Source of the DNA: an uncultured Desulfobacteraceae bacterium
Lineage (GTDB): Bacteria > Desulfobacterota > DSM-4660 > Desulfatiglandales > HGW-15
Length of the DNA: 64,000 nt
Assembly: GCA_964418945.1 (NCBI GenBank)
Contig: CAYQNR010000005.1
Span: forward strand, 5,771 to 69,770
Direction: 5' to 3'
How positions within the stretch are numbered: the first letter of the stretch is position 1; every line of letters begins with the position of its first letter. The translations under genes were made by a program, and so were the position numbers. Below are positions 1-35,430 of this stretch, piece by piece. The notes under the pieces were generated by a model. It had not been told where the DNA came from and made no database searches. It saw only the letters and a list, made by a program, of their open reading frames with translations.

Positions 1-458
1 CCTAAAAATATTTCAATTTCCGCATCAAAATTGGCCGTCAGATCCGGTAACTGACCGCCCAGGAAGAAGAGATATTCGTCGACATCGTGGTGATGTGATT
101 GCAGTTCCATCTTGAATGGTTTGACATAATAACGGAATCCCATATTTATGCCAGCGCCAGAAAGGTCACTGGCACCACGGAAACTGATCGTCGGACTCAG
201 TATGGTGTCGGTTAACGGTTTCTCTTTCAGCCTGGTGCAGAACAGGTGGTCGTATTTGTTACCGGTAGTTCCTTCGGGCCAGGGGGAAAGGTTGGGTGTC
301 TCCCGAAAATTATCCAGGGGCTTCTATTGCTCTTGCGCCATTGCAGCCGTTGGCGAACCTAATTGAGCCAATGCCATTGCCGCCAGAGCGGTAGAGGCTG
401 TTAAATCACTGAAAAATGCCCTGCGGGTTTGATTCTTTTTACTGGTAATAGAACTCAT
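1..458 (-). pseudogene. Tat-signal cupin-like protein, paralog A. The 3' end is cut by the window edge and there is an in-frame TAG at 324..326.
   Basis: ATG at 458..456 follows a GGAGAG RBS. The N-terminus reads MSSITSKKNQTRRAFFSDLTASTALAAMALAQLGSPTAAMAQEQ, then TAG, then KPLDNFRETPNLSPWPEGTTGNKYDHLFCTRLKEK...HHHDVDEYLFFLG. It is about 90% identical at nucleotide level to 2643..3134 by eye. The ORF track misses it because no Met follows the TAG. Confidence 0.55.
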
Positions 459-629: not shown

Positions 630-2345
630 CTAGTACTTCTCGTAAATCGGTTTGAGATTACTGTACTTCGCCACCAGCTTGTCCCAATTTTTCGGCAATT
701 CTATTTTTTTAGTGACAAGGGTATTATTGAAAAATCCGGGGCCAACGCTCCTAAGCAGGCCTATAAATGAGCCAGGCCCTCCGGCAACCAGAATTATAAG
801 GTTCTCGGTATCCATTTTTGAAGGAGTGGCGGCGTTTGAAAAACCGGCGATTTTCGAACCGCCAATGCTATGCTCCGCTATATATTCTTTGACTTTCTGC
901 TTCGTGTATCCTTCGCTCGATAAAACCCTGGCCCAGGAAGGAATAAGAATGACGCTGGACATGCTGGTGGTTCCAATGTTTACAAGCGTATCCAGAATCC
1001 CTTTTGCGTCTGTTCCGCCTGGAACCGTCTGAATAAAGGTGTTGGGAAAGAACACGGTCACGGTGTTGTCTTCTTTTGTGAAGCCGCGCTCGACGCTGAG
1101 AGGCTCCCAGGGGCTCGCCTCTTCATCCTCACCGATTACAAGGCTGTACTTGCCGGGATTGCCGATGACCCCCATGTCCTCGACAGCCTTTCTTGCTCCG
1201 CCGATGTTCTTGACGATAAGTCCCACGGCCCGGCCGATTGCAGAATTAGCGATATTTCCCGGACTTAGCGCGCCCGAGCTGCAATTGATGTGGATGTCTC
1301 TTCTTATCCGGCCGTTGATGGTAAGGGAGGGCGCCCAGGAACCTGTACTTACTTCAAATGTATCAAACCTGGCTTTCGGATCGGCAAAAGCCTGTACTGT
1401 AGCGATTAAAACCGGCATATGGGTTGGAAGCGCACCGGCCATCACCGCGTTAATCGCGATCTTTTCAATCGTGGCTTTTCCTTTTCTCGGGATGATCGTC
1501 GCCACAATATGGTCGGGCGGCAGATCCGTCCCGGTCAGCATCTCCGCGACGGCTTCCTCAGTCGGCGGAATAATGGGCATACCGTCGCCCCACCCCTTGC
1601 GGTAGTAGAACCGGTTTACCTCCTGAAGAGTTCCTTTAAACGCTACCCTTGGAGTCTTGCCTGTTTTCTGCTTCGGAGATTTCTCTTCGGGACTCAGCGG
1701 CCTGGTCAGGCCTTCAACCAGGTCTTTCATGGCTGCCGCTACGCCCTCTTCTATCTCGGATATGACAGTGGATTCACAAGCCACGGATTCTCCCACGATT
1801 CTGATTCCGGGCATTCCCTTACTCGATGCAGCTGAATGAGCATCGTCAACAAAACCATTATTAGCCAGTAGCACGACCGGCTTGCCAAAGTCCTCGACCG
1901 CTATTCCATTATAGACGAGGTACTTTGTACAGGACCCTCAGTCACCGACAACGGCGATTACCGCGTCAACTTCCCTGACCCAGGCAGTAAACTTTTCTTT
2001 GTTCTTTGTCTCGATCTCGTTGACATTCGGCTCTGTGGAATGGAACACGATTGTCTGGATATCGGGGTAAATATTCTTAAGTCTCTTATCGATTGATTCC
2101 GCGATCGGCATGGCTGCCCGCTTGGAATTGACGAATAATCCGATTTTCTTTCCCGCGAGGCTTTGGATTCTCGGGGAGATCCCTCTTAACGGGATCGGGT
2201 CTGCATCCGCCCATGGACTGAGAACTTCAAATGGAATTTCCTGCTTCTTCGGTTCGGAACCCCCGGCTGTTTGAGCCATGGATAAGTCCTGGACAGCTAT
2301 AACGGCAAAAATTCCGATAAAAAGCGCTATTAAAAATCTGTTCAT
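630..2345 (-). CDS. UGSC-family selenoprotein (571 aa if TGA 1938..1940 is Sec) with an N-terminal Sec-type signal peptide
   Basis: ORF-track entries 1938..2345 and 630..1874 are in the same frame. They are separated only by TGA plus 21 sense codons. The junction reads ...DAVIAVVGD-U-GSCTKYLVYNGIAVEDFGKPV-VLLANNGF. The signal peptide is MNRFLIALFIGIFAVIAVQDLSMA|Q. Confidence 0.8.
1892..1920 (-). other. Candidate SECIS-like stem-loop starting 17 nt 3' of the UGA
   Basis: On the minus strand the RNA reads CCUCG-U-CUAU-AAUGGA-AUAG-CGGU-CGAGG, giving 5-bp and 4-bp stems with a GG-containing loop. This was folded by eye only. Confidence 0.3.
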
Positions 2346-2449
2346 GGTAGTCTCATTCTCCTTTCAAAATGGTTTGGTAAAAGGGGACATCGCGCAGAGT
2401 GTGTAATGAAACTATAAATCCGTTTCTGCACGAATGTCCAATTAATTTA

Positions 2450-3097
2450 CTAATCGATCTTTTTATTACCGATAAATTGCATATAACCCGTCTGGTAGTA
2501 CCCGTTGAAATAGGGCGACAGAAGCAGGGGCATGAACAATAACGGTTTGCCCACCCTCTTAATATCCATCGGATTGTGCTCGAATCCTCTGGGAATATAG
2601 AGGATACAGGGTTTGGTAATGATATGTCTTTCATACTCCGGCCCCAAAAATATTTCAATTTCCGCATCGAAATTGGCCGTCAGATCCGGTAACTGGGCGC
2701 CAAGGAAGAAGAGATATTCATCGACATCGTGGTGATGTGATTGCAGTTCCATCTTAAATGGTTTGACATAATAGCGGAATCCCATATTGATGCCAGCGCC
2801 TGGAAGGTCGCTTGCACCGCGGAAACTGATCGTCGGACTGAGTATGGTATCTGTTAGCGGTTTCTCTTTCAGCCTGGTGCAGAACAGATGATCGTATTTG
2901 TTGCCGGTAGTTCCCTCAGGCCAGGGCGGAAGGTTGGATGGCATCCGAAAATTATCCGGAGGCTTCTTATCCTCTTGTGCCAGTGCCGCCGTTGGCGAGC
3001 CTAATTGGGCCATTGCTATTGCTGCCAGAGCGGTGGAGGCTGTTACATCGCTGAAAAATGCCCTGCGAGTTAGTTTCTTTTTATTGTTAATAGTCAT
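2450..3097 (-). CDS. Tat-exported cupin-like protein, paralog B (216 aa)
   Basis: ATG at 3097..3095 follows GGAGAGAT. The Tat signal is MTINNKKKLTRRAFFSDVTASTALAAIAMAQLGSPTAALA|QED. His-rich core motifs are HHHDVDEYLFFLG and IPRGFEHNPMDIKRVGKP. The longer track ORF (to 3331) overlaps the esterase and was trimmed. Confidence 0.8.
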   Translation of the reverse strand: MTINNKKKLTRRAFFSDVTASTALAAIAMAQLGSPTAALAQEDKKPPDNFRMPSNLPPWPEGTTGNKYDHLFCTRLKEKPLTDTILSPTISFRGASDLPGAGINMGFRYYVKPFKMELQSHHHDVDEYLFFLGAQLPDLTANFDAEIEIFLGPEYERHIITKPCILYIPRGFEHNPMDIKRVGKPLLFMPLLLSPYFNGYYQTGYMQFIGNKKID

Positions 3098-3180: not shown

Positions 3181-4800
3181 CTATTTCACAAAGGCTTCGC
3201 CCTCGGGAGTCCTCCGCCAGGCGAAATACCGATCCATGACCTTGAGCGCATCGGCACTGGGGACCGGCCCGGTGTGAGGCGTCCGGGCAAAGTGCATCAC
3301 CACGGGGTCGACGTCGCTGAACGCCGGCCACTCGGGGAGGCCCGGGCCGTTCGGGTCGCCGGATTTGGCGAAGTTTGTCCAGTAGGTGGCCATAGCCTCC
3401 GAAATTACCTCGTCCGACTTGGCAGGCTGCTGATTCGGATTCAGGTGCTGGAATACATAGGACACTTCCTGCCCATGCGGCGATCCTTGCCCGGCCTGCG
3501 GTGAATCAGCCGGATAATCCGGATGCTGATCGAAGTAATAGTAAAACACCCTGGATTTACCCGTCTTTGACTGCAACCGCGCCCAAATCCAGGTTTGCCA
3601 TCCGAACGCTGCGTCACGCATCAGGTCGCGTGCGGTCTTGGCCACGGTTTCTGTACCCGGGGGATAGGCCGCGATGAGTTTATCGGCGAACGGACCGAAG
3701 CGCGACTTCACGCTGGCAATGTAATCCTCCGGGGTCCGCGCGGGAGAGAAGCTCAGGCCCTCGTCGGAATTATAGCCAATCAGAACCGGAACGTCGTTGT
3801 AACGCTTCGCTTCATAGAGCTTGTATTGATCGTCAGGAATCACCCATCCATCGATGATCGGCCAATTGCTCAGGCCGGCTGGCCCGCCACCACCACGAGC
3901 AGCCTGACCGCCTTGACCACGGCCGCCGCTCGAAAGCTTATCTGGAGAGAGCTTCCGCGCTTTCTCTATGGATTCCACGCCGGACGCTTTGAGGGTTGCT
4001 ATACCCGAACGCTCAGCGTCGATCAACTTTTTCATGTTCTCACCGGGCATGGTTGCAGGCCTCGGAGGTCCAAACGACCCGCCACTCTCCGAGATCGCGC
4101 CGTGAAACAGCCCTTTTGCCAGCGGCGACGCGCACAACATGCTGACGGCGATTCCTCCGGCTGACTCGCCGAAGATGGTCACATGATTGGGATCCCCACC
4201 GAATGCGGAAATGTTGTTCTGTATCCACTTGAGACTGGCAATCATGTCAAGCAGACCGTAGTTTCCAGATACGTGGTTTTCAGTCTCGGCGCTCAACTCC
4301 GGATGAACGAAGAATCCCATTTGCCCTACGCGGTAGGCGATACTCACCAGCACTACCCCCTTCTTGGCAAGTTTCTCTCCGCTGAATATGGGATAGGATG
4401 TCGCACCGCCTGCGAATCCGCCACCGTAGATCCACACAAAAACGGGAACGCGATCGAGCTGCGATTTCGCCGGACTCCAGATATTCAAATATAAACAGTC
4501 CTCACACGGCGCAGGTCCGCTGCCGCCGGGACCCATCATCATGCCCTGTACGCACGCGGGAGCGAACTTGACGGTGTCTTTCACGCCGTCCCACTTCACC
4601 ACCGGCTGAGGGGCGCGCCAACGGAGGTCACCGACCGGAGGCGCTGCAAACGGGATGCCTCTGTAAACCGTGAGCCCATCCTCGACAGCACCTTGCACCA
4701 ATCCGCCCTCTACCCTGACAGGGGCGGGCGCAGGCTCCTGCGCGAAACAGATCCCGGCTATAAGAATTACGAATATTGCGACTAGAAAAGATCTCTTCAT
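3181..4800 (-). CDS. Secreted type-B carboxylesterase/lipase
   Basis: Signal peptide MKRSFLVAIFVILIAGICFA|QE. Family motifs present: YRGIPFAAPPVGDLRWRAPQP, EDCLYLNIW, GGGF, and the nucleophile elbow GESAGG. Confidence 0.9.
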   Translation of the reverse strand: MKRSFLVAIFVILIAGICFAQEPAPAPVRVEGGLVQGAVEDGLTVYRGIPFAAPPVGDLRWRAPQPVVKWDGVKDTVKFAPACVQGMMMGPGGSGPAPCEDCLYLNIWSPAKSQLDRVPVFVWIYGGGFAGGATSYPIFSGEKLAKKGVVLVSIAYRVGQMGFFVHPELSAETENHVSGNYGLLDMIASLKWIQNNISAFGGDPNHVTIFGESAGGIAVSMLCASPLAKGLFHGAISESGGSFGPPRPATMPGENMKKLIDAERSGIATLKASGVESIEKARKLSPDKLSSGGRGQGGQAARGGGGPAGLSNWPIIDGWVIPDDQYKLYEAKRYNDVPVLIGYNSDEGLSFSPARTPEDYIASVKSRFGPFADKLIAAYPPGTETVAKTARDLMRDAAFGWQTWIWARLQSKTGKSRVFYYYFDQHPDYPADSPQAGQGSPHGQEVSYVFQHLNPNQQPAKSDEVISEAMATYWTNFAKSGDPNGPGLPEWPAFSDVDPVVMHFARTPHTGPVPSADALKVMDRYFAWRRTPEGEAFVK

Positions 4801-13684: not shown

Positions 13685-16129
13685 CTACAGGTTATGCTCG
13701 CTCCTGTTTATTACATCGTCCTGGATGCTGGGAGAAAGCTGTGTGAAATAGGCACTAAAGCCGCCTATTCGAACAATGAGATCCCTGTATTTTTCAGGAT
13801 GGCTTTTGGCAGCTCTCAACTCATTGGTGTCAACCATGTTGTACTGAATATGAGAGCCGTTATTCAGCATGAAGGCATTTGTGTAGGCAACAAGCTTATC
13901 AATGCTCTCTACACTTTGCACAATGGAAGCGGAGAACTTCTGATTAAGGACCGAAGCATAGGATTCTCTAAATCCTGCCTTTAGTGCTGAGCGTATTACA
14001 GAGGTGGGACCTTTCTTGTCAGCGCCTCTCATGGGTGACAATGCCCCGTCATTAAGGGGTTCAAATGCCTTCCGCCCGTTAGGTAAGGCTCCCACACCGA
14101 GTCCGCCGAAGTAATGCCAGGCAAGACCCTCTCTCGCAACAAGATATCTTCGAAACGGAGAGTTGTCATAACTCCTGATTATATTGTATGAATCTTTACT
14201 TAGCTTCCCGGCAAGGGTATCCACTTCATCGATATCATTACCGTATTTAGGCTGAGCAAGACACATCTGCCGTATCTCTTCACCCTGTACACCTTCAAAG
14301 TTATTATCCAGGGTATTAAGCAGTTCATCCATAGTCAGCTTTTTTTCATCAAATACCAGCTTCTTTATAGCAATAAGAGAGTCGGCAACATCGATGATAG
14401 CCCGGTCGGAAATACCGAACATGGAGTAATCGGGGTGGGGGATAAGTAAATCCTGCCCGTCATCCGTACATTTCTCAATACCCATTACTGATAAAAACGG
14501 CAATCTTAAGTATTTTGACTGTTCCTTTCTGGCGATCGCAGCCAGCCAGAAGATTCGGTGAGTGATGAATTTATGCTGCTCCATCAAGGCATTGTAGATT
14601 TCATCAAAGGTTTTGAATTTTCTTGGATCACCGGTTTGAACTCCCGTAAGCTTACCGTTAACATCAATCCCGTTATGGAGTACAAGGTGCAGCATGGCGG
14701 CCATATTACAGGCGGCTACTCCCTCTGCACCGTAATGTTCCGCCCTGGAAGGGAGACACGGATATACACAGCCCAAACCGCACCACTCACTGGCTTCCTC
14801 AAAGGGGATACCGTCCTCCAGGAAATGAGAGATTACCACTTCGTCATTCTCAAAAAGAGGGATGCCGCCTTTAGTAATTATATTTGTGCGGATGGCCTTG
14901 TTCATAAGCCAGTCGGGGGTTTCCTTGTTCCAGCGGAGCCCGACAGTAGGGGATGACAACTGTAAAAGACCTACAACATGCAGAAAAAGATAACTTAATT
15001 CGTTTGAAGAATCTGTCCCGTTCCTGTCAACACCGCCGATCATTAGATTATTAATGGCGAAATTTATCTGATGGGATTCCTTCAAACTCTCGGATGAGAC
15101 AAAGGTTTGTGTACCCCATCGACCAACAAGTTCCGCCAATAACTCAGCCGCTTTTTCCAGTGTGATAGTGCCGTTATTTATATCATTGATAAAGTATTGG
15201 TATAAATATTGATCACCTCGTCCCCACTGGGGATTGTTGTGCATGGGGTTCTCATAGTTTTTGCACACGCCGATAATAGACATGGACTGCAGCGCTTCAT
15301 GGAAGGTCCTGGCCGGATTTTCGGGTACGTGTTCACAGACACGGGCGATTTCAAAAAGCTCGGCTTTACGTTCTTCACTCGTTTCAATTTCCGCGATTTG
15401 CCTTGCCAGAGCCGCGTATCTGCGGGAATGGTTTATCGCCGCCTCGCATACAATGATGGCCGATCTCCAGAAATAAAGCTTATCCATGTCTGTTTCGTGG
15501 TTTTCGATAAAGGCATCTATATGGGCCTGGGCGTCATCAATAAAACTCCTGACTCCTTTTCTCAGAATCTTTTCCCACATCAGCACCGATGTGCACTGGG
15601 CGAATATCCCCGTATCCAGGGTTGGATCCTTTAGTTTTGCCTTTTCCGTATCCTTGACCCATGCACCCACGACCGCCTCCCATGCCTTGTATGTCATTTC
15701 GGGAGCTGTATTACCGCTAAATAAACGGGCGCTGTTGCGAAGGATCTCCATACTTTCATTATCCAGCCCGACATTCGCGTCCATCGTAATATTAAGCTCG
15801 GTGGTCTCATTCCATAGATCGGGTATATAGTCTCCGGATATGTCGAAGGAAGTAGCGCATCCTATAACTTCCGGAGTCAAACGCCCTACAATTACGTCAT
15901 AGTCCTGAATACGGATTTCAATATTATCCAGGATGCTTTTTAACAATTTGGCGCGTCGAATCTGAATATCTTCTCCTTCCGTCTCATGCCATGACGATAC
16001 CGTCCATTTCTCCCTGTCAGCAAACAGCTTCCAACCGGATGACTTCATGGCTTGTTTCCATTGCTGAATACGCTCGCTGAGTTTCAACTCATCAATCCGG
16101 TCAAGCAACCTTGTATTAACATCAGTCAT
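13685..16129 (-). CDS. Glycyl-radical enzyme (PFL fold), unassigned subfamily
   Basis: The protein is 814 aa. The C-terminal fingerprint is YRDLIVRIGGFSAYFTQLSPSIQDDVINRSEH. The Cys loop is WCGLGCVYPC (Cys454 = 14768..14770). An activase gene lies immediately upstream. Confidence 0.9.
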   Translation of the reverse strand: MTDVNTRLLDRIDELKLSERIQQWKQAMKSSGWKLFADREKWTVSSWHETEGEDIQIRRAKLLKSILDNIEIRIQDYDVIVGRLTPEVIGCATSFDISGDYIPDLWNETTELNITMDANVGLDNESMEILRNSARLFSGNTAPEMTYKAWEAVVGAWVKDTEKAKLKDPTLDTGIFAQCTSVLMWEKILRKGVRSFIDDAQAHIDAFIENHETDMDKLYFWRSAIIVCEAAINHSRRYAALARQIAEIETSEERKAELFEIARVCEHVPENPARTFHEALQSMSIIGVCKNYENPMHNNPQWGRGDQYLYQYFINDINNGTITLEKAAELLAELVGRWGTQTFVSSESLKESHQINFAINNLMIGGVDRNGTDSSNELSYLFLHVVGLLQLSSPTVGLRWNKETPDWLMNKAIRTNIITKGGIPLFENDEVVISHFLEDGIPFEEASEWCGLGCVYPCLPSRAEHYGAEGVAACNMAAMLHLVLHNGIDVNGKLTGVQTGDPRKFKTFDEIYNALMEQHKFITHRIFWLAAIARKEQSKYLRLPFLSVMGIEKCTDDGQDLLIPHPDYSMFGISDRAIIDVADSLIAIKKLVFDEKKLTMDELLNTLDNNFEGVQGEEIRQMCLAQPKYGNDIDEVDTLAGKLSKDSYNIIRSYDNSPFRRYLVAREGLAWHYFGGLGVGALPNGRKAFEPLNDGALSPMRGADKKGPTSVIRSALKAGFRESYASVLNQKFSASIVQSVESIDKLVAYTNAFMLNNGSHIQYNMVDTNELRAAKSHPEKYRDLIVRIGGFSAYFTQLSPSIQDDVINRSEHNL

Positions 16130-16148
16130 TTTTTCTCCTTATTTTATA

Positions 16149-17099
16149 TTACCGCGAGATCGTGCAGTCTATCCCGCGATCAATATAGGCCTTTTTTACA
16201 GCTTCCAGATCTTCATTATCCATAATGTCAAGATCAGCCATATGATATTCAATATTGAGTGCCTTATACTTATCCTTCCCCATTCTATGAAAGGGCATGA
16301 GTTCAAGCCTTAATGCCTTTTTGCCAAGATTCATTAAAAATCTCGCAGTCGCTTCAATATTTATGAGTGAATCATTTACGCCCGGTATCAACGGCTGGCG
16401 GAAAACAATATCCGCGTCATGTTCTAATATAAAGGCGGCATTCTTCAGGATTATATCATTGTGATGTCCGGTATATTCTTTGTGAGTGTCGGAATCCATA
16501 TGTTTCAGGTCAAACAGAAACCGGTCTGTTACCGGTATTACTTCCAGAAACGCATCCGAATCCACAAAACCGCATGTTTCAACACAGGTGCCGATCTGCT
16601 CTTTTCGGCATAACTCGAACAACTCCCGTACAAAAGGCGCGTAAAGCAACGGCTCCCCGCCGGAAACAGTCACGCCACCATTGGAGGTATCATAGAATAT
16701 CTTGTCACGTTTGACAGCGTCCCAGACCTCATCAACAGTCATCGGGTCTCCGTATTTGACCAAAGCGCCATAACTGCAATTATCCCTGCACTTTCCGCAT
16801 GCTACACAGCGGGAGTAATCGATACGGTGCTTATCCTCACCAAAGCTGATCGCGTTGTTCGGGCATGTGTCAATACATTTACCGCAGCCTTTACAAAGGA
16901 TTTCAAAAAAACCCATCTGTGGCTTCCCAGAAACACATTCGGGATTGGCGCACCATTTGCATGACAGGGGGCAGCCTTTAAAGAAAACAACCGTCCTGAT
17001 ACCCGGCCCGTCATGAATAGAATAATATTGTATGTTGGTAATAACAGCACTATCCATTTCAGGTAGAGAACCAACTTCGAAAATGTTATCAAGAATCAT
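16149..17099 (-). CDS. Glycyl-radical enzyme activating protein (radical SAM)
   Basis: Motifs: CPLSCKWCANPE (16950..16973) and two ferredoxin-like motifs, CKGCGKCIDTCP and CVACGKCRDNC. The GGEPLL motif is present. Confidence 0.9.
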   Translation of the reverse strand: MILDNIFEVGSLPEMDSAVITNIQYYSIHDGPGIRTVVFFKGCPLSCKWCANPECVSGKPQMGFFEILCKGCGKCIDTCPNNAISFGEDKHRIDYSRCVACGKCRDNCSYGALVKYGDPMTVDEVWDAVKRDKIFYDTSNGGVTVSGGEPLLYAPFVRELFELCRKEQIGTCVETCGFVDSDAFLEVIPVTDRFLFDLKHMDSDTHKEYTGHHNDIILKNAAFILEHDADIVFRQPLIPGVNDSLINIEATARFLMNLGKKALRLELMPFHRMGKDKYKALNIEYHMADLDIMDNEDLEAVKKAYIDRGIDCTISR

Positions 17100-34728: not shown

Positions 34729-35430
34729 ATGAGCAAAGATAAGAAAAAGAACAACAAAAAGCGACATGAAGACAGCACCCAGATTGCCTATCATGGCATC
34801 AGGCACATGCTTTACAATAAGGAGCTTGTGCCGGGCCAGAGAATAGCCTACAGAGATCTGGCTGAAAGGCTTGAATTGAGTCCCACACCGATTATTCAAG
34901 CCCTGAAATGGCTGGAATTACAGGGTTATGTGCTGCATGAACCGAACCGTGGTTATGTCCTGGCGCCTTTCAGCGTAAAAGAGTTAGAGGAGCTTTATGA
35001 GATAAGGGAGCTTATCGAACCTTCTCTTGTCCCGGCCGCTATCGAGAAGATTGATAAACAAGGTCTCAGCAAACTCAAGGCGGCGCTTGAGGCTCACCTT
35101 TCTGCGGAAAGGGATTACTACCTGAAGGAAAGGCTGTTTAAAAACAGGGAATTCCATATGTCCCTTGCCTCTCTTTCCGGTAAAGCTACGCAGGTCCGGA
35201 TCCTGCAAAACGTCTTTGATATGCTTTTCCTCAAATACGGGGGCAACTATTTTCCCATAGCTTCAATATCGGCCACCGACCAGGCTCACCAAGAGGTGTA
35301 TGACGCCTTCGCGCTGCGTAGTATGGAAAGGGCGCAGTCCGTGCTCAAGAATCACTTGGCAAATGTGAAAATACAGGTGATGTCCAGTATCAAAAAGATA
35401 CTCGCGGAGCAAGAACGGACTGAGTTCTGA
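34729..35430 (+). CDS. GntR-family (FCD-type) transcriptional regulator
   Basis: The wHTH reads LVPGQRIAYRDLAERLELSPTPIIQALKWLELQGYVLHEPNRGYVLAP, and the C-terminus is helical and FCD-like. It is divergent from sucC. Confidence 0.85.
   Translation: MSKDKKKNNKKRHEDSTQIAYHGIRHMLYNKELVPGQRIAYRDLAERLELSPTPIIQALKWLELQGYVLHEPNRGYVLAPFSVKELEELYEIRELIEPSLVPAAIEKIDKQGLSKLKAALEAHLSAERDYYLKERLFKNREFHMSLASLSGKATQVRILQNVFDMLFLKYGGNYFPIASISATDQAHQEVYDAFALRSMERAQSVLKNHLANVKIQVMSSIKKILAEQERTEF

Follow-up and report, generated by a model that had tools for sequence, protein, structure and literature searches.

An interrupted gene and its neighbours

The window, by which we mean the whole 64-kb stretch of DNA analysed here, carries two adjacent ORFs on its minus strand, 2345..1938 (135 aa) and 1874..630 (414 aa), which together form one frame of 571 codons, 2345..630. 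The single internal stop of this frame is a TGA at 1940..1938. The 135-aa ORF ends with ...AVIAVVGD immediately before it, the frame continues after it with GSCTKYLVYNGIAVEDFGKPV, 21 open codons that reach the GTG of the 414-aa ORF, and codons 135-139 at the junction read D-U-G-S-C. An earlier note on this DNA had taken the two ORFs for one gene running across an in-frame TGA, with 21 stop-free codons between the TGA and the start of the second ORF, and the minus-strand frame confirms both points. Reading the sequence, we found a Shine-Dalgarno-like AAAGGAG upstream of the ATG and no comparable ribosome-binding site before the GTG at 1874. The same layout, one frame with one internal TGA, is repeated in 76 homologous loci. 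The features of the gene are as follows.

630..2345, minus strand: predicted selenoprotein precursor, complete CDS in one frame, with ATG 2345..2343, Sec codon 136 and stop TAG 632..630
2358..2364, minus strand: Shine-Dalgarno-like AAAGGAG, 12 nt 5' of ATG 2345..2343
2274..2345, minus strand: predicted Sec-type signal peptide, residues 1-24, MNRFLIALFIGIFAVIAVQDLSMA, with predicted cleavage after S-M-A
1704..2222, minus strand: UGSC domain, residues 42-214 (PF24696, 88.8 bits), alpha/beta with parallel strands in a homologue model
1938..1940, minus strand: in-frame TGA, presumed selenocysteine codon U136; TGA in homologous loci, Cys in the homologues P0124, P0133 and L141
1929..1940, minus strand: U-G-S-C motif, codons 136-139, proposed U-x-x-C redox pair at a helix N-terminus
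1883..1931, minus strand: SECIS-like hairpin, UGA+10 to UGA+58, -15.1 kcal/mol, z -2.9
1863..1882, minus strand: second small hairpin, AGCCGGU-CGUGCU-ACUGGCU, -9.6 kcal/mol, z -2.6, directly after the first
633..1682, minus strand: C-terminal 'UGSC-partner' domain, residues 222-571 (350 residues), with the motifs GWGDGMPIIPPT and EKIAINAVMAGA

Three further genes on the same strand surround it.

2450..3097, minus strand: intact upstream gene for a 215-aa protein with the twin-arginine signal TRRAFFSD and the cupin-type motifs HHHDVDE..G and PRGFEHN
3181..4800, minus strand: exported type-B carboxylesterase (PF00135, COesterase) with signal peptide MKRSFLVAIFVILIAGICFA
1..458, minus strand: broken paralogue of the Tat/cupin-like gene, interrupted by TAG 326..324 and a frameshift and running off the window

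The PF00135 match and the signal peptide bear out the exported carboxylesterase that had been proposed upstream, and 12 loci have carboxylesterases close to the selenoprotein gene. The earlier note had also placed Tat-exported cupin-like paralogues on both sides of the gene. This stands for the upstream copy (3097..2450), which is intact, but not for the downstream one (458..<1), which is broken, and the term 'cupin-like' refers to motifs read in the sequence and to one PDB match, a cupin, at E 0.3. Among the homologous loci, 11 close ones and 6 that are more distant have a Tat/cupin-like gene adjoining the selenoprotein gene. This neighbour was considered as the counterpart of the SnoaL_4 neighbours of the cytoplasmic homologues and rejected, as the two have no similarity. 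The broken paralogue has the same 44-aa and 102-aa gene calls in the contigs L001-L004.

The TGA lies inside a conserved UGSC domain

The Pfam UGSC family (PF24696), whose gathering score is 25, matched the protein with 88.8 bits over residues 42-214 and profile positions 3-171 of 172. The match spans the TGA and upholds the claim that the family signature extends across the junction. The NCBIfam UGSC equivalog cut-off (NF041046) was missed, at 70.6 vs 125 bits, because the protein is diverged and fused; stand-alone UGSC proteins encoded next to a gene for the partner domain scored 120-136 bits against the same cut-off. Judged from these profile scores, the 630..2345 protein is a diverged, fused relative of the family and not an NF041046 equivalog.

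The U136 codon is TGA in all 76 homologous genomic loci, which come from three phyla; the relatives are Desulfobacterota, Acidobacteriota and Chloroflexota MAGs. It is never TAA or TAG, so the conservation of the TGA is far above chance. Coding is conserved on both sides of it in these loci, and the 21 codons that follow are among the most conserved of the gene, also at the nucleotide level. Among the metagenome UGSC loci the codon is TGA in 64 of 65 and TGT in the remaining one (L141), giving a ratio of Sec to Cys of 64 to 1. Uninterrupted Cys orthologues, which the earlier note had proposed looking for, do exist: P0124 and P0133, at 45-48% identity, read GD-C-GSC. The opposite case that it had named, orthologues that end at the TGA and are followed by an independent start, was not seen.

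Full-length homologues with Cys at the U136 position bear Tat or Sec signals. U136 and C139 are invariant in 71/71 members of the clade, in which conserved Cys of the partner domain are absent. Ala takes the place of U in many of the cytoplasmic homologues, so the family as a whole can do without the first residue of the pair.

For the structure, a full-length homologue with 50% identity was modelled with AF2, as was the C-terminal domain of the 630..2345 protein itself. The homologue model (pLDDT 87.7) shows the pattern E38-43/H49-63/E68-72/H90-98/E102-108/H111-126/E131-136, and its UGSC part consists of five alternating strand-helix units. The residue equivalent to U136 comes after strand E102-108 and before helix H111-126, centrally placed in a domain that was modelled with confidence and not at a domain border. 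No thioredoxin fold carrying the U-x-x-C was seen in this model; the nearest PDB folds were flavodoxin-like, all with E > 1e-3, and Foldseek with the full-length model returned generic alpha/beta matches only. Sequence searches of the PDB with protein and profile queries gave no match.

A hairpin follows the TGA

The earlier note had described a stem-loop at 1920..1892. It is present, as the inner part of a longer conserved hairpin, 1931..1883. The lower helix of this hairpin, UGU.CAAAGU/ACUUUG.GCA, is followed by a bulged A and by the helix CCUCG/CGAGG, and the apex consists of CUAU/AUAG closing the loop AAUGGA. Only 2 of 200 shuffled sequences fold as stably. RNAalifold on all 76 sequences returned the second small hairpin only and not the main one, and pairs were therefore counted on a named structure. 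Over the 76 sequences 87% of pair cells were kept (89% for the 14-bp helix), compared with 30-44% in slid controls; this test favours the structure, since the structure was taken from the window sequence. The apical stem was paired in just 70%, and true compensatory changes were few. The mean folding z at the site was -2.81, against about 0 in control windows elsewhere in the genes. Synonymous codon entropy over codons +1 to +26 was 0.85 vs 1.39 bits (p 5e-7), indicating that variation is suppressed there. In the second hairpin 94% of cells were paired, and pairs had changed from GC to AU and from UA to CG. No SECIS or other family was reported by Rfam, whether the gathering threshold or permissive ones were applied. 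The hairpin at 1931..1883 is as far from the UGA as a bacterial SECIS element should be and is a putative binding site for SelB.

The N-terminus resembles a Sec signal peptide

The N-terminus, MNRFLIALFIGIFAVIAVQDLSMA followed by QT, is arranged in n, h and c regions like a Sec signal peptide, the three being MNR, FLIALFIGIFAVIAV and QDLSMA, with Q as the first residue after the predicted cut. In 58/71 homologues the N-terminus is built likewise: the n-region is basic, the hydrophobic core has 12 residues or more, and S-x-A precedes Q. The assignment was made by rule and conservation and not by a trained predictor; on this basis the Sec-type signal peptide claimed in the earlier note is predicted here as well.

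The C-terminal domain is a partner of UGSC proteins

The UGSC domain makes up only one third of the protein, and the rest includes the 350-residue C-terminal domain, which the earlier note had overlooked. This domain had no match in Pfam, NCBIfam or PDB sequences, and its AF2 model was confident (pLDDT 88.5, pTM 0.91). We found that 65 of 80 metagenome loci encoding the domain, stand-alone or fused, have a UGSC gene adjoining or fused to it on the same strand. In these 65 loci the UGSC gene carries the TGA in 64, is fused in 15, and lies directly upstream of the C-domain gene in 36, often with a 4-nt overlap. By gene arrangement, the C-terminal domain regularly accompanies the classical stand-alone UGSC selenoproteins as their partner. 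Because its C-domain matches the protein encoded beside stand-alone UGSC genes, the 630..2345 gene can be read as a fused two-part enzyme.

Cytoplasmic relatives have three nearly invariant Cys in the partner domain, where the 630..2345 protein has A305, V332 and V403; its whole clade is without C305, C332 and C403. In the wider family, Sec and the partner residues C332 and H540 exclude one another.

Few selenoproteins in aquatic metagenomes are as abundant as those of the UGSC family, for which, to our knowledge, neither a function nor a partner has been named in about twenty years. The fusion at 630..2345 names that partner and makes of the two a defined two-component unit. There are natural variants for comparison too: the key residue may be Sec, Cys or Ala, the partner Cys present or absent, and the protein exported or cytoplasmic.

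A possible mechanism and its alternatives

We are confident, although short of certain, that 2345..630 on the minus strand is one gene for the 571-residue precursor of an exported selenoprotein in which UGSC and its partner are fused, and the TGA at 1940..1938 most likely encodes selenocysteine. In the mechanism that we propose, SelB and Sec-tRNA would bind the hairpin 1931..1883 and insert selenocysteine at codon 136. Residues 1-24 would direct the chain, still unfolded, through the Sec translocon and be cut off after S-M-A. The mature protein would then hold U136 and C139 at a helix start of the alpha/beta UGSC domain, and the two may alternate between selenol/thiol and selenenylsulfide states. 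The redox centre so formed would serve the 350-residue C-terminal domain, which would hold the substrate. The exported esterases and the Tat-exported cupin-like metalloprotein encoded nearby may indicate that small organic molecules are processed outside the cytoplasm. A U-x-x-C redox centre serving a partner domain is our best guess.

The alternative that survives best, though we think it unlikely, is that Sec136 is not part of a U-x-x-C redox pair and acts instead as a nucleophile, attacking a partner-held substrate as selenoprotein B of glycine reductase and D-proline reductase (GrdB/PrdB) does, or as a ligand of a metal or cluster shared with the partner. GrdB and PrdB are cytoplasmic U-x-x-C selenoproteins that act on a substrate held by a partner. 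The resemblance of the 630..2345 protein to them is one of logic and not of membership, and its partner domain is unrelated to GrdE/PrdA as far as tested. In favour of the alternative, one stand-alone UGSC protein, not the 630..2345 protein, gave a single faint GrdB match near the Sec region (TIGR01917, 15.5 bits vs a cut-off of 602, E 0.006). Against it, the Pfam GRDB profile (PF07355) found no match at E up to 10. The alternative is also favoured by the mutual exclusion of Sec and C332/H540, as if Sec had replaced a ligand or catalytic residue, and by the fold matches of the partner domain. The best of these, though weak, are class I [4Fe-4S] fumarate hydratases (5l2r, 7xky; E about 1e-3, TM 0.23-0.31), and the three nearly invariant Cys of the cytoplasmic relatives are what cluster-binding hydro-lyases have. 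However, hhalign of the partner domain against E. coli FumA gave a probability of 0.3%, which is not significant, and export by the Sec pathway is hard to square with a cluster built in the cytoplasm. The three Cys ligands expected of a class I fumarate hydratase-type [4Fe-4S] hydro-lyase are missing from the 630..2345 protein, which has A305, V332 and V403 at the Cys positions of its cytoplasmic relatives. A cluster in the partner domain is unlikely because the clade has lost all three Cys. Moreover, C139 is invariant beside U136, as expected of a resolving cysteine.

A wider scenario, tentative as a whole and more doubtful than not, takes UGSC and its partner of about 350 residues for an obligate two-part enzyme of an undescribed kind. 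The partner domain of its cytoplasmic ancestors would have contained three Cys and one His, possibly as a metal or Fe-S site with a faint likeness to that of class I fumarate hydratase. Once selenium was in use, the part played by C332 and H540 would have passed to Sec. In the exported clade, which has lost all partner Cys, Sec136 and C139 would be the sole catalytic centre, giving a cofactor-free periplasmic selenoenzyme, and its substrates may be the products of the neighbouring esterases.

That 2345..630 comprises two separate genes, one for a 135-residue exported protein and one for a 394-414-residue cytoplasmic protein starting at a GTG or ATG, is very improbable. The databases have it so: the 120 closest entries are annotated as 392-427-residue proteins starting after the TGA, and the JGI annotation calls a separate 135-aa gene. 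Yet the Pfam domain spans the stop, which falls inside a folded domain; the 21 codons from stop to start are strongly conserved at the protein and the RNA level alike; the stop is TGA throughout, and Cys homologues read straight through; and the annotated starts vary with the caller between GTG and ATG and have no ribosome-binding site before them. In all its annotations the gene is thus wrongly given as two hypothetical proteins.

There is as little chance that near-cognate or reassigned decoding makes the UGA a codon for Cys, Trp or Gly and not for selenocysteine. Sec machinery was not found in the window, where Pfam scans of 24 ORFs did not find selA, selB or selD and ARAGORN detected no tRNA-Sec (selC). 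Nevertheless, homologues without the TGA have Cys, and a conserved hairpin stands at the distance of a bacterial SECIS. Elsewhere in the 64 kb no other ORF pair is convincingly split by a TGA, and we know of no UGA reassignment in Desulfobacterota, Acidobacteriota or Chloroflexota. The motif is also the signature of a recognised selenoprotein family (PMC2398784). A recent nonsense mutation or assembly error that left a pseudogene, which the broken downstream paralogue of the neighbouring gene might bring to mind, is refuted by conservation, as independent assemblies agree on TGA at this codon in all 76 genomic loci and in 64 of the 65 from metagenomes, 19 contigs contain the same sequence, and neither side shows decay.

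Relation to known selenoproteins

The UGSC family of Zhang and Gladyshev (PF24696, NF041046), with ABI76733.1 of Hyphomonas neptunium as an example, has been known since about 2005. The 630..2345 protein shares with it the domain, the D-U-G-S-C motif, a Sec form far commoner than the Cys form, and a hairpin that starts about 13 nt after the UGA. Unlike the classical protein of about 180 residues, it is fused to a 350-residue domain and has a signal peptide. The hairpins also differ, the classical one having an 8-bp GUCGUGGA/UCCACGAC stem and a 3-nt loop and that of 630..2345 a long interrupted stem.

The Global Ocean Sampling survey of 2008 (PMC2398784) counts 255 Sec forms vs 21 Cys forms of UGSC and shows a 'UGSC/Unknown_1' fusion in its reads (Figure S1A). 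The same survey guesses a thioredoxin-like fold for UGSC, whereas the homologue model of 630..2345 has alternating parallel strands and helices. The fused domains described there (PMC2398784) have at least one conserved Cys; in contrast, the partner domain of the 630..2345 clade has none of the family's conserved Cys.

An exported selenoprotein is not unprecedented. MccSep of Geobacter sulfurreducens, a periplasmic multihaem selenoprotein (10.1101/2025.11.18.688581), likewise consists of two annotated ORFs joined by an in-frame UGA. Its gene has a SECIS-like hairpin, its N-terminal signal peptide is cleaved, and its location in the periplasm has been demonstrated. MccSep is an unrelated cytochrome c with CxxCH motifs and is a precedent for the architecture only; the 630..2345 protein would be a widespread, non-haem addition to the few selenoproteins that are known to use the Sec translocon for export.

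Two open reading frames joined by an in-frame TGA

The earlier note had read two adjacent ORFs as one exported UGSC selenoprotein translated through an in-frame TGA. The ORFs are as follows.

2345..1938, minus strand: 5' ORF of 135 codons, ending ...AVIAVVGD at the TGA (1940..1938)
1874..630, minus strand: 3' ORF of 414 codons, with a GTG start

The frame stays open between them, with GSCTKYLVYNGIAVEDFGKPV linking the TGA to the 414-codon ORF. The joined frame (2345..630) has 571 codons with the TGA as its sole internal stop, and the junction reads D-U-G-S-C (U136 to C139). A Shine-Dalgarno sequence, AAAGGAG (2364..2358, minus strand), precedes the ATG at 2345, and nothing comparable was found in the sequence upstream of the internal GTG. 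The Pfam UGSC family, PF24696, covers residues 42-214 including the TGA (88.8 bits; gathering score 25), which is the family match that the earlier reading called for; the NCBIfam equivalog NF041046 scored 70.6 bits over the same stretch, below its cut-off of 125.

Each of the 120 closest database proteins (77-100% identity) is a fragment, 392-427 residues long, with its start right after the TGA, showing that gene callers truncated 120 of 120 entries at this codon. We took 80 related loci from species-representative genomes (Desulfatiglans, other Desulfobacterota, Acidobacteriota and Dehalococcoidia MAGs), with 3 or 4 paralogues in several of them. In all 76 loci with sufficient upstream DNA the frame extends upstream into a conserved N-terminal half and is interrupted by TGA in 76 of 76, never by TAA or TAG. 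A search of 1.8 billion cluster representatives yielded full-length relatives, 530-620 residues long, that lack the interruption. Two of these proteins, P0124 (twin-arginine signal) and P0133 (Sec-type signal), read GD-C-GSC and are thus Cys orthologues of the kind the earlier note had proposed to look for; in others the Sec position is occupied by Ser, Ala, Gly or Phe. In an AlphaFold model (pLDDT 87.7, pTM 0.91) of a full-length relative with 50% identity, the position equivalent to U136 lies mid-domain, between strand 102-108 and helix 111-126, and not at a domain border.

The Pfam match across the TGA, the conservation of this codon in 76 of 76 loci, the uninterrupted relatives and the mid-domain position together exclude, for practical purposes, an assembly error, a pseudogene and two separate genes. 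The observation and the reading of the earlier note both hold: judged from its sequence, the window's gene, though annotated wrongly, most likely encodes a selenoprotein of the known UGSC family, in a variant that is fused to a further domain and predicted to be exported.

The partner domain and its pairing with UGSC proteins

Residues 222-571, the partner domain, matched no sequence in Pfam, NCBIfam or PDB, and were modeled confidently on their own (pLDDT 88.5, pTM 0.91). Stand-alone versions of 340-370 residues exist, and six of them served as queries that retrieved 80 metagenome loci. Of the 80, 67 have a UGSC-domain ORF beside the partner on the same strand; the U/C-G-S-C motif was legible in 65 of these, with TGA as the motif codon in 64 and TGT in one. 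Fifteen of these 65 are fused in frame as in the window; the UGSC gene is directly upstream in 36, often with a 4-nt overlap with the partner start, and downstream in 14. Three of four UGSC neighbors passed the NF041046 cut-off (130-136 bits; the fourth scored 120), which identifies them as the classical UGSC selenoproteins, a family abundant in ocean metagenomes and of no known function (PMC2398784, PMC1976440, PMC13188914). The window's gene is therefore a widespread two-gene unit in fused form. Mention of a 'UGSC/Unknown_1' fusion goes back to 2008, and Unknown_1 may be the partner domain described here. The present analysis adds two points: UGSC selenoproteins are strictly paired with this partner domain, which no family model covers, and a pattern of cysteine loss accompanies Sec.

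Cysteine states and a possible mechanism

Three states were found (window numbering). In state (a), members of a large family of cytoplasmic UGSC-partner fusions of about 560 residues from many phyla, including archaea, have D-A-G-S-C, with Ala in place of Sec, and their partner domain carries three nearly invariant cysteines (305, 332 and 403) and a GGGDHGG motif; these fusions are candidates for binding a metal or Fe-S cluster. In state (b), the classical Sec forms keep C305 and C403 and lack C332 and the His. In state (c), the clade of the window has Sec together with Ala305, Val332 and Val403; every member keeps U136 and C139, and 65 of 71 have C190. Sec and the C332/H540 pair are thus mutually exclusive. 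The state (a) members (P0271-P0386, alignment A3; loci L085-L088) come from Chloroflexota, Clostridia, Actinobacteria, WOR-3 and Bathyarchaeia, and all are annotated as hypothetical.

The best structural matches of the partner domain were class I [4Fe-4S] fumarate hydratases, and these were weak (E 8e-4 to 1.6e-3, TM 0.23-0.31). Profile comparison with E. coli FumA was not significant. The sole stretch that hhalign aligned (alignment A5 against FumA, L169 6732-8378; probability 0.3%) placed AVMAGC-LPTYMP of the partner domain on GTAAC-PPYHI of FumA, the region of one cluster-binding cysteine of FumA; this may be coincidence.

In the model, the UGSC domain looks parallel alpha/beta and flavodoxin-like rather than thioredoxin-like. 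On our best reading, U136 and C139 would form a selenol/thiol to selenenylsulfide center at a helix N-terminus, acting on a substrate held by the partner domain; the main rival is that Sec would serve instead as a nucleophile or a ligand. A stand-alone UGSC protein (L119 3447-3977) showed a faint match of residues 77-150 to TIGR01917 positions 330-397 (E 0.006), which cover GrdB's own Sec region; Pfam GRDB did not match this protein.

The hairpin after the UGA

The stem-loop at 1920..1892 that the earlier note described is real, and is the inner part of a longer, interrupted hairpin possible in the mRNA (1931..1883, minus strand), 10 to 58 nt past the U of the UGA. It is built from UGU.CAAAGU and CCUCG, separated by a bulged A, then an internal loop and an apical CUAU/AUAG stem with the loop AAUGGA, and the return strand is CGAGG-ACUUUG.GCA. 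Folded alone, this segment gave -15.1 kcal/mol (z -2.9). Among 76 distinct sequences, pair cells were standard in 87% versus 30-44% when the 3' partners were slid by 1-3 columns, a count biased toward structure because the structure was derived from the window sequence. The lower and middle helix (14 bp) was paired in 89% and the apical stem in only 70%, and compensatory changes were few. In an independent test on the 76 loci, a 56-nt segment from 6 nt after the UGA start had a mean z of -2.81 (86% below -1), versus averages of -0.6 to +0.3 for segments at six positions elsewhere in these genes. Codon entropy at conserved residues reached its minimum for the gene across codons +1 to +26, at 0.85 bits versus 1.39 elsewhere (p 5e-7). 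Another feature follows directly, and no Rfam family matched.

1882..1863, minus strand: second small hairpin (-9.6 kcal/mol, z -2.6, 94% paired)

The SECIS of the classical stand-alone UGSC genes differs from this long hairpin. It has an 8-bp stem, GUCGUGGA/UCCACGAC, and a 3-nt loop, with clear covariation (for example GUCGUGCA/UGCACGAC and AUCCUGC/GCAGGAU). The form GUCGUGGA-GUG/GUA-UCCACGAC is sharply conserved in L089-L168 and starts about 14 nt past the UGA (for example L094 654-720 and L131 70-135).

Predicted export

Residues 1-24, MNR-FLIALFIGIFAVIAV-QDLSMA, are arranged like a Sec signal peptide, S-x-A standing ahead of the cut, in agreement with the earlier prediction. A Sec-type peptide was predicted in 58 of 71 homologues with a complete N-terminus, all 58 from Desulfobacterota and Acidobacteriota; the other 13, mostly Dehalococcoidia, begin straight at the conserved YEVLSPWA, suggesting that Sec-containing forms are both exported and cytoplasmic. 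Exported selenoproteins have precedents. In Geobacter, MccSep was shown to be a single polypeptide from two annotated ORFs joined by UGA, periplasmic and with its signal peptide cleaved (10.1101/2025.11.18.688581); it shares with the window's gene the UGA-joined ORF pair and the N-terminal signal peptide, predicted in our case. Selenium-containing binding proteins with signal sequences were described earlier (10.1101/2022.07.06.499078).

Genomic neighborhood

Upstream on the same strand are an alpha/beta hydrolase, two type-B carboxylesterases with signal peptides, in keeping with the exported carboxylesterase noted before, and a 215-residue Tat-signal protein. Tat-exported cupin-like paralogs had been claimed on both flanks; the upstream copy stands and the downstream copy is broken.

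2450..3097, minus strand: 215-residue protein that carries a twin-arginine signal and His/Glu motifs of cupin type (HHHDVDE...G, PRGFEHN)
1..458, minus strand: downstream Tat/cupin-like paralogue, its frame disrupted by a TAG (326..324) and a frameshift of one base

Four other metagenome contigs carry this paralogue in the same disrupted form (44-aa and 102-aa gene calls), so it is no read error. Pfam gave no family for the 215-residue protein, which adjoins the selenoprotein gene in 11 close loci, with relatives at 25-38% identity in 6 more; copies outside the window are, for example, those in L007 (5350-5997), L017, L019, L020, L021 and L009. Carboxylesterases are close to the selenoprotein gene in 12 loci. 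The neighbors of the state (a) relatives are transporters (TRAP, GntP, ABC), SnoaL_4 proteins, a lactonase-like protein, an amidohydrolase and glycyl-radical enzymes, which suggests catabolism of small organic acids.

The window itself contains a glycyl-radical enzyme (PFL-like and Gly_radical) followed by a 316-codon ORF (13685..17099, minus strand), with the enzyme 11 kb from the selenoprotein gene, and such enzymes lie near homologues in two more loci (L172 9107-11509; L085 2936-5302 and 15906-17689). Five loci (L170 3970-5901, L171 11629-13873, L172 1478-3733, L016 and L022) encode a 643-residue FAD_binding_2 flavoprotein at a distance of a few kb from the selenoprotein gene, beside a small 4Fe-4S ferredoxin (about 100 residues) in four of them; this pair is absent from the window.

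Gene copies, Sec machinery and another TGA

Genomes often carry several copies of the selenoprotein gene, each with its own TGA, as in OY761556.1 (L024, L063, L075) and CAXXKH01 (L012, L022, L043, L046), and tandem copies occur on one contig (L172 4049-5827 and 6473-8182). No tRNA-Sec, selA, selB or selD was found within the 64-kb window. Elsewhere in the window, a 233-codon ORF (34729..35430, plus strand) ends in a TGA at 35428 that is followed by 83 more in-frame codons (...ERTEF-TGA-GTGACYYLNPGD); this TGA is probably an ordinary stop.
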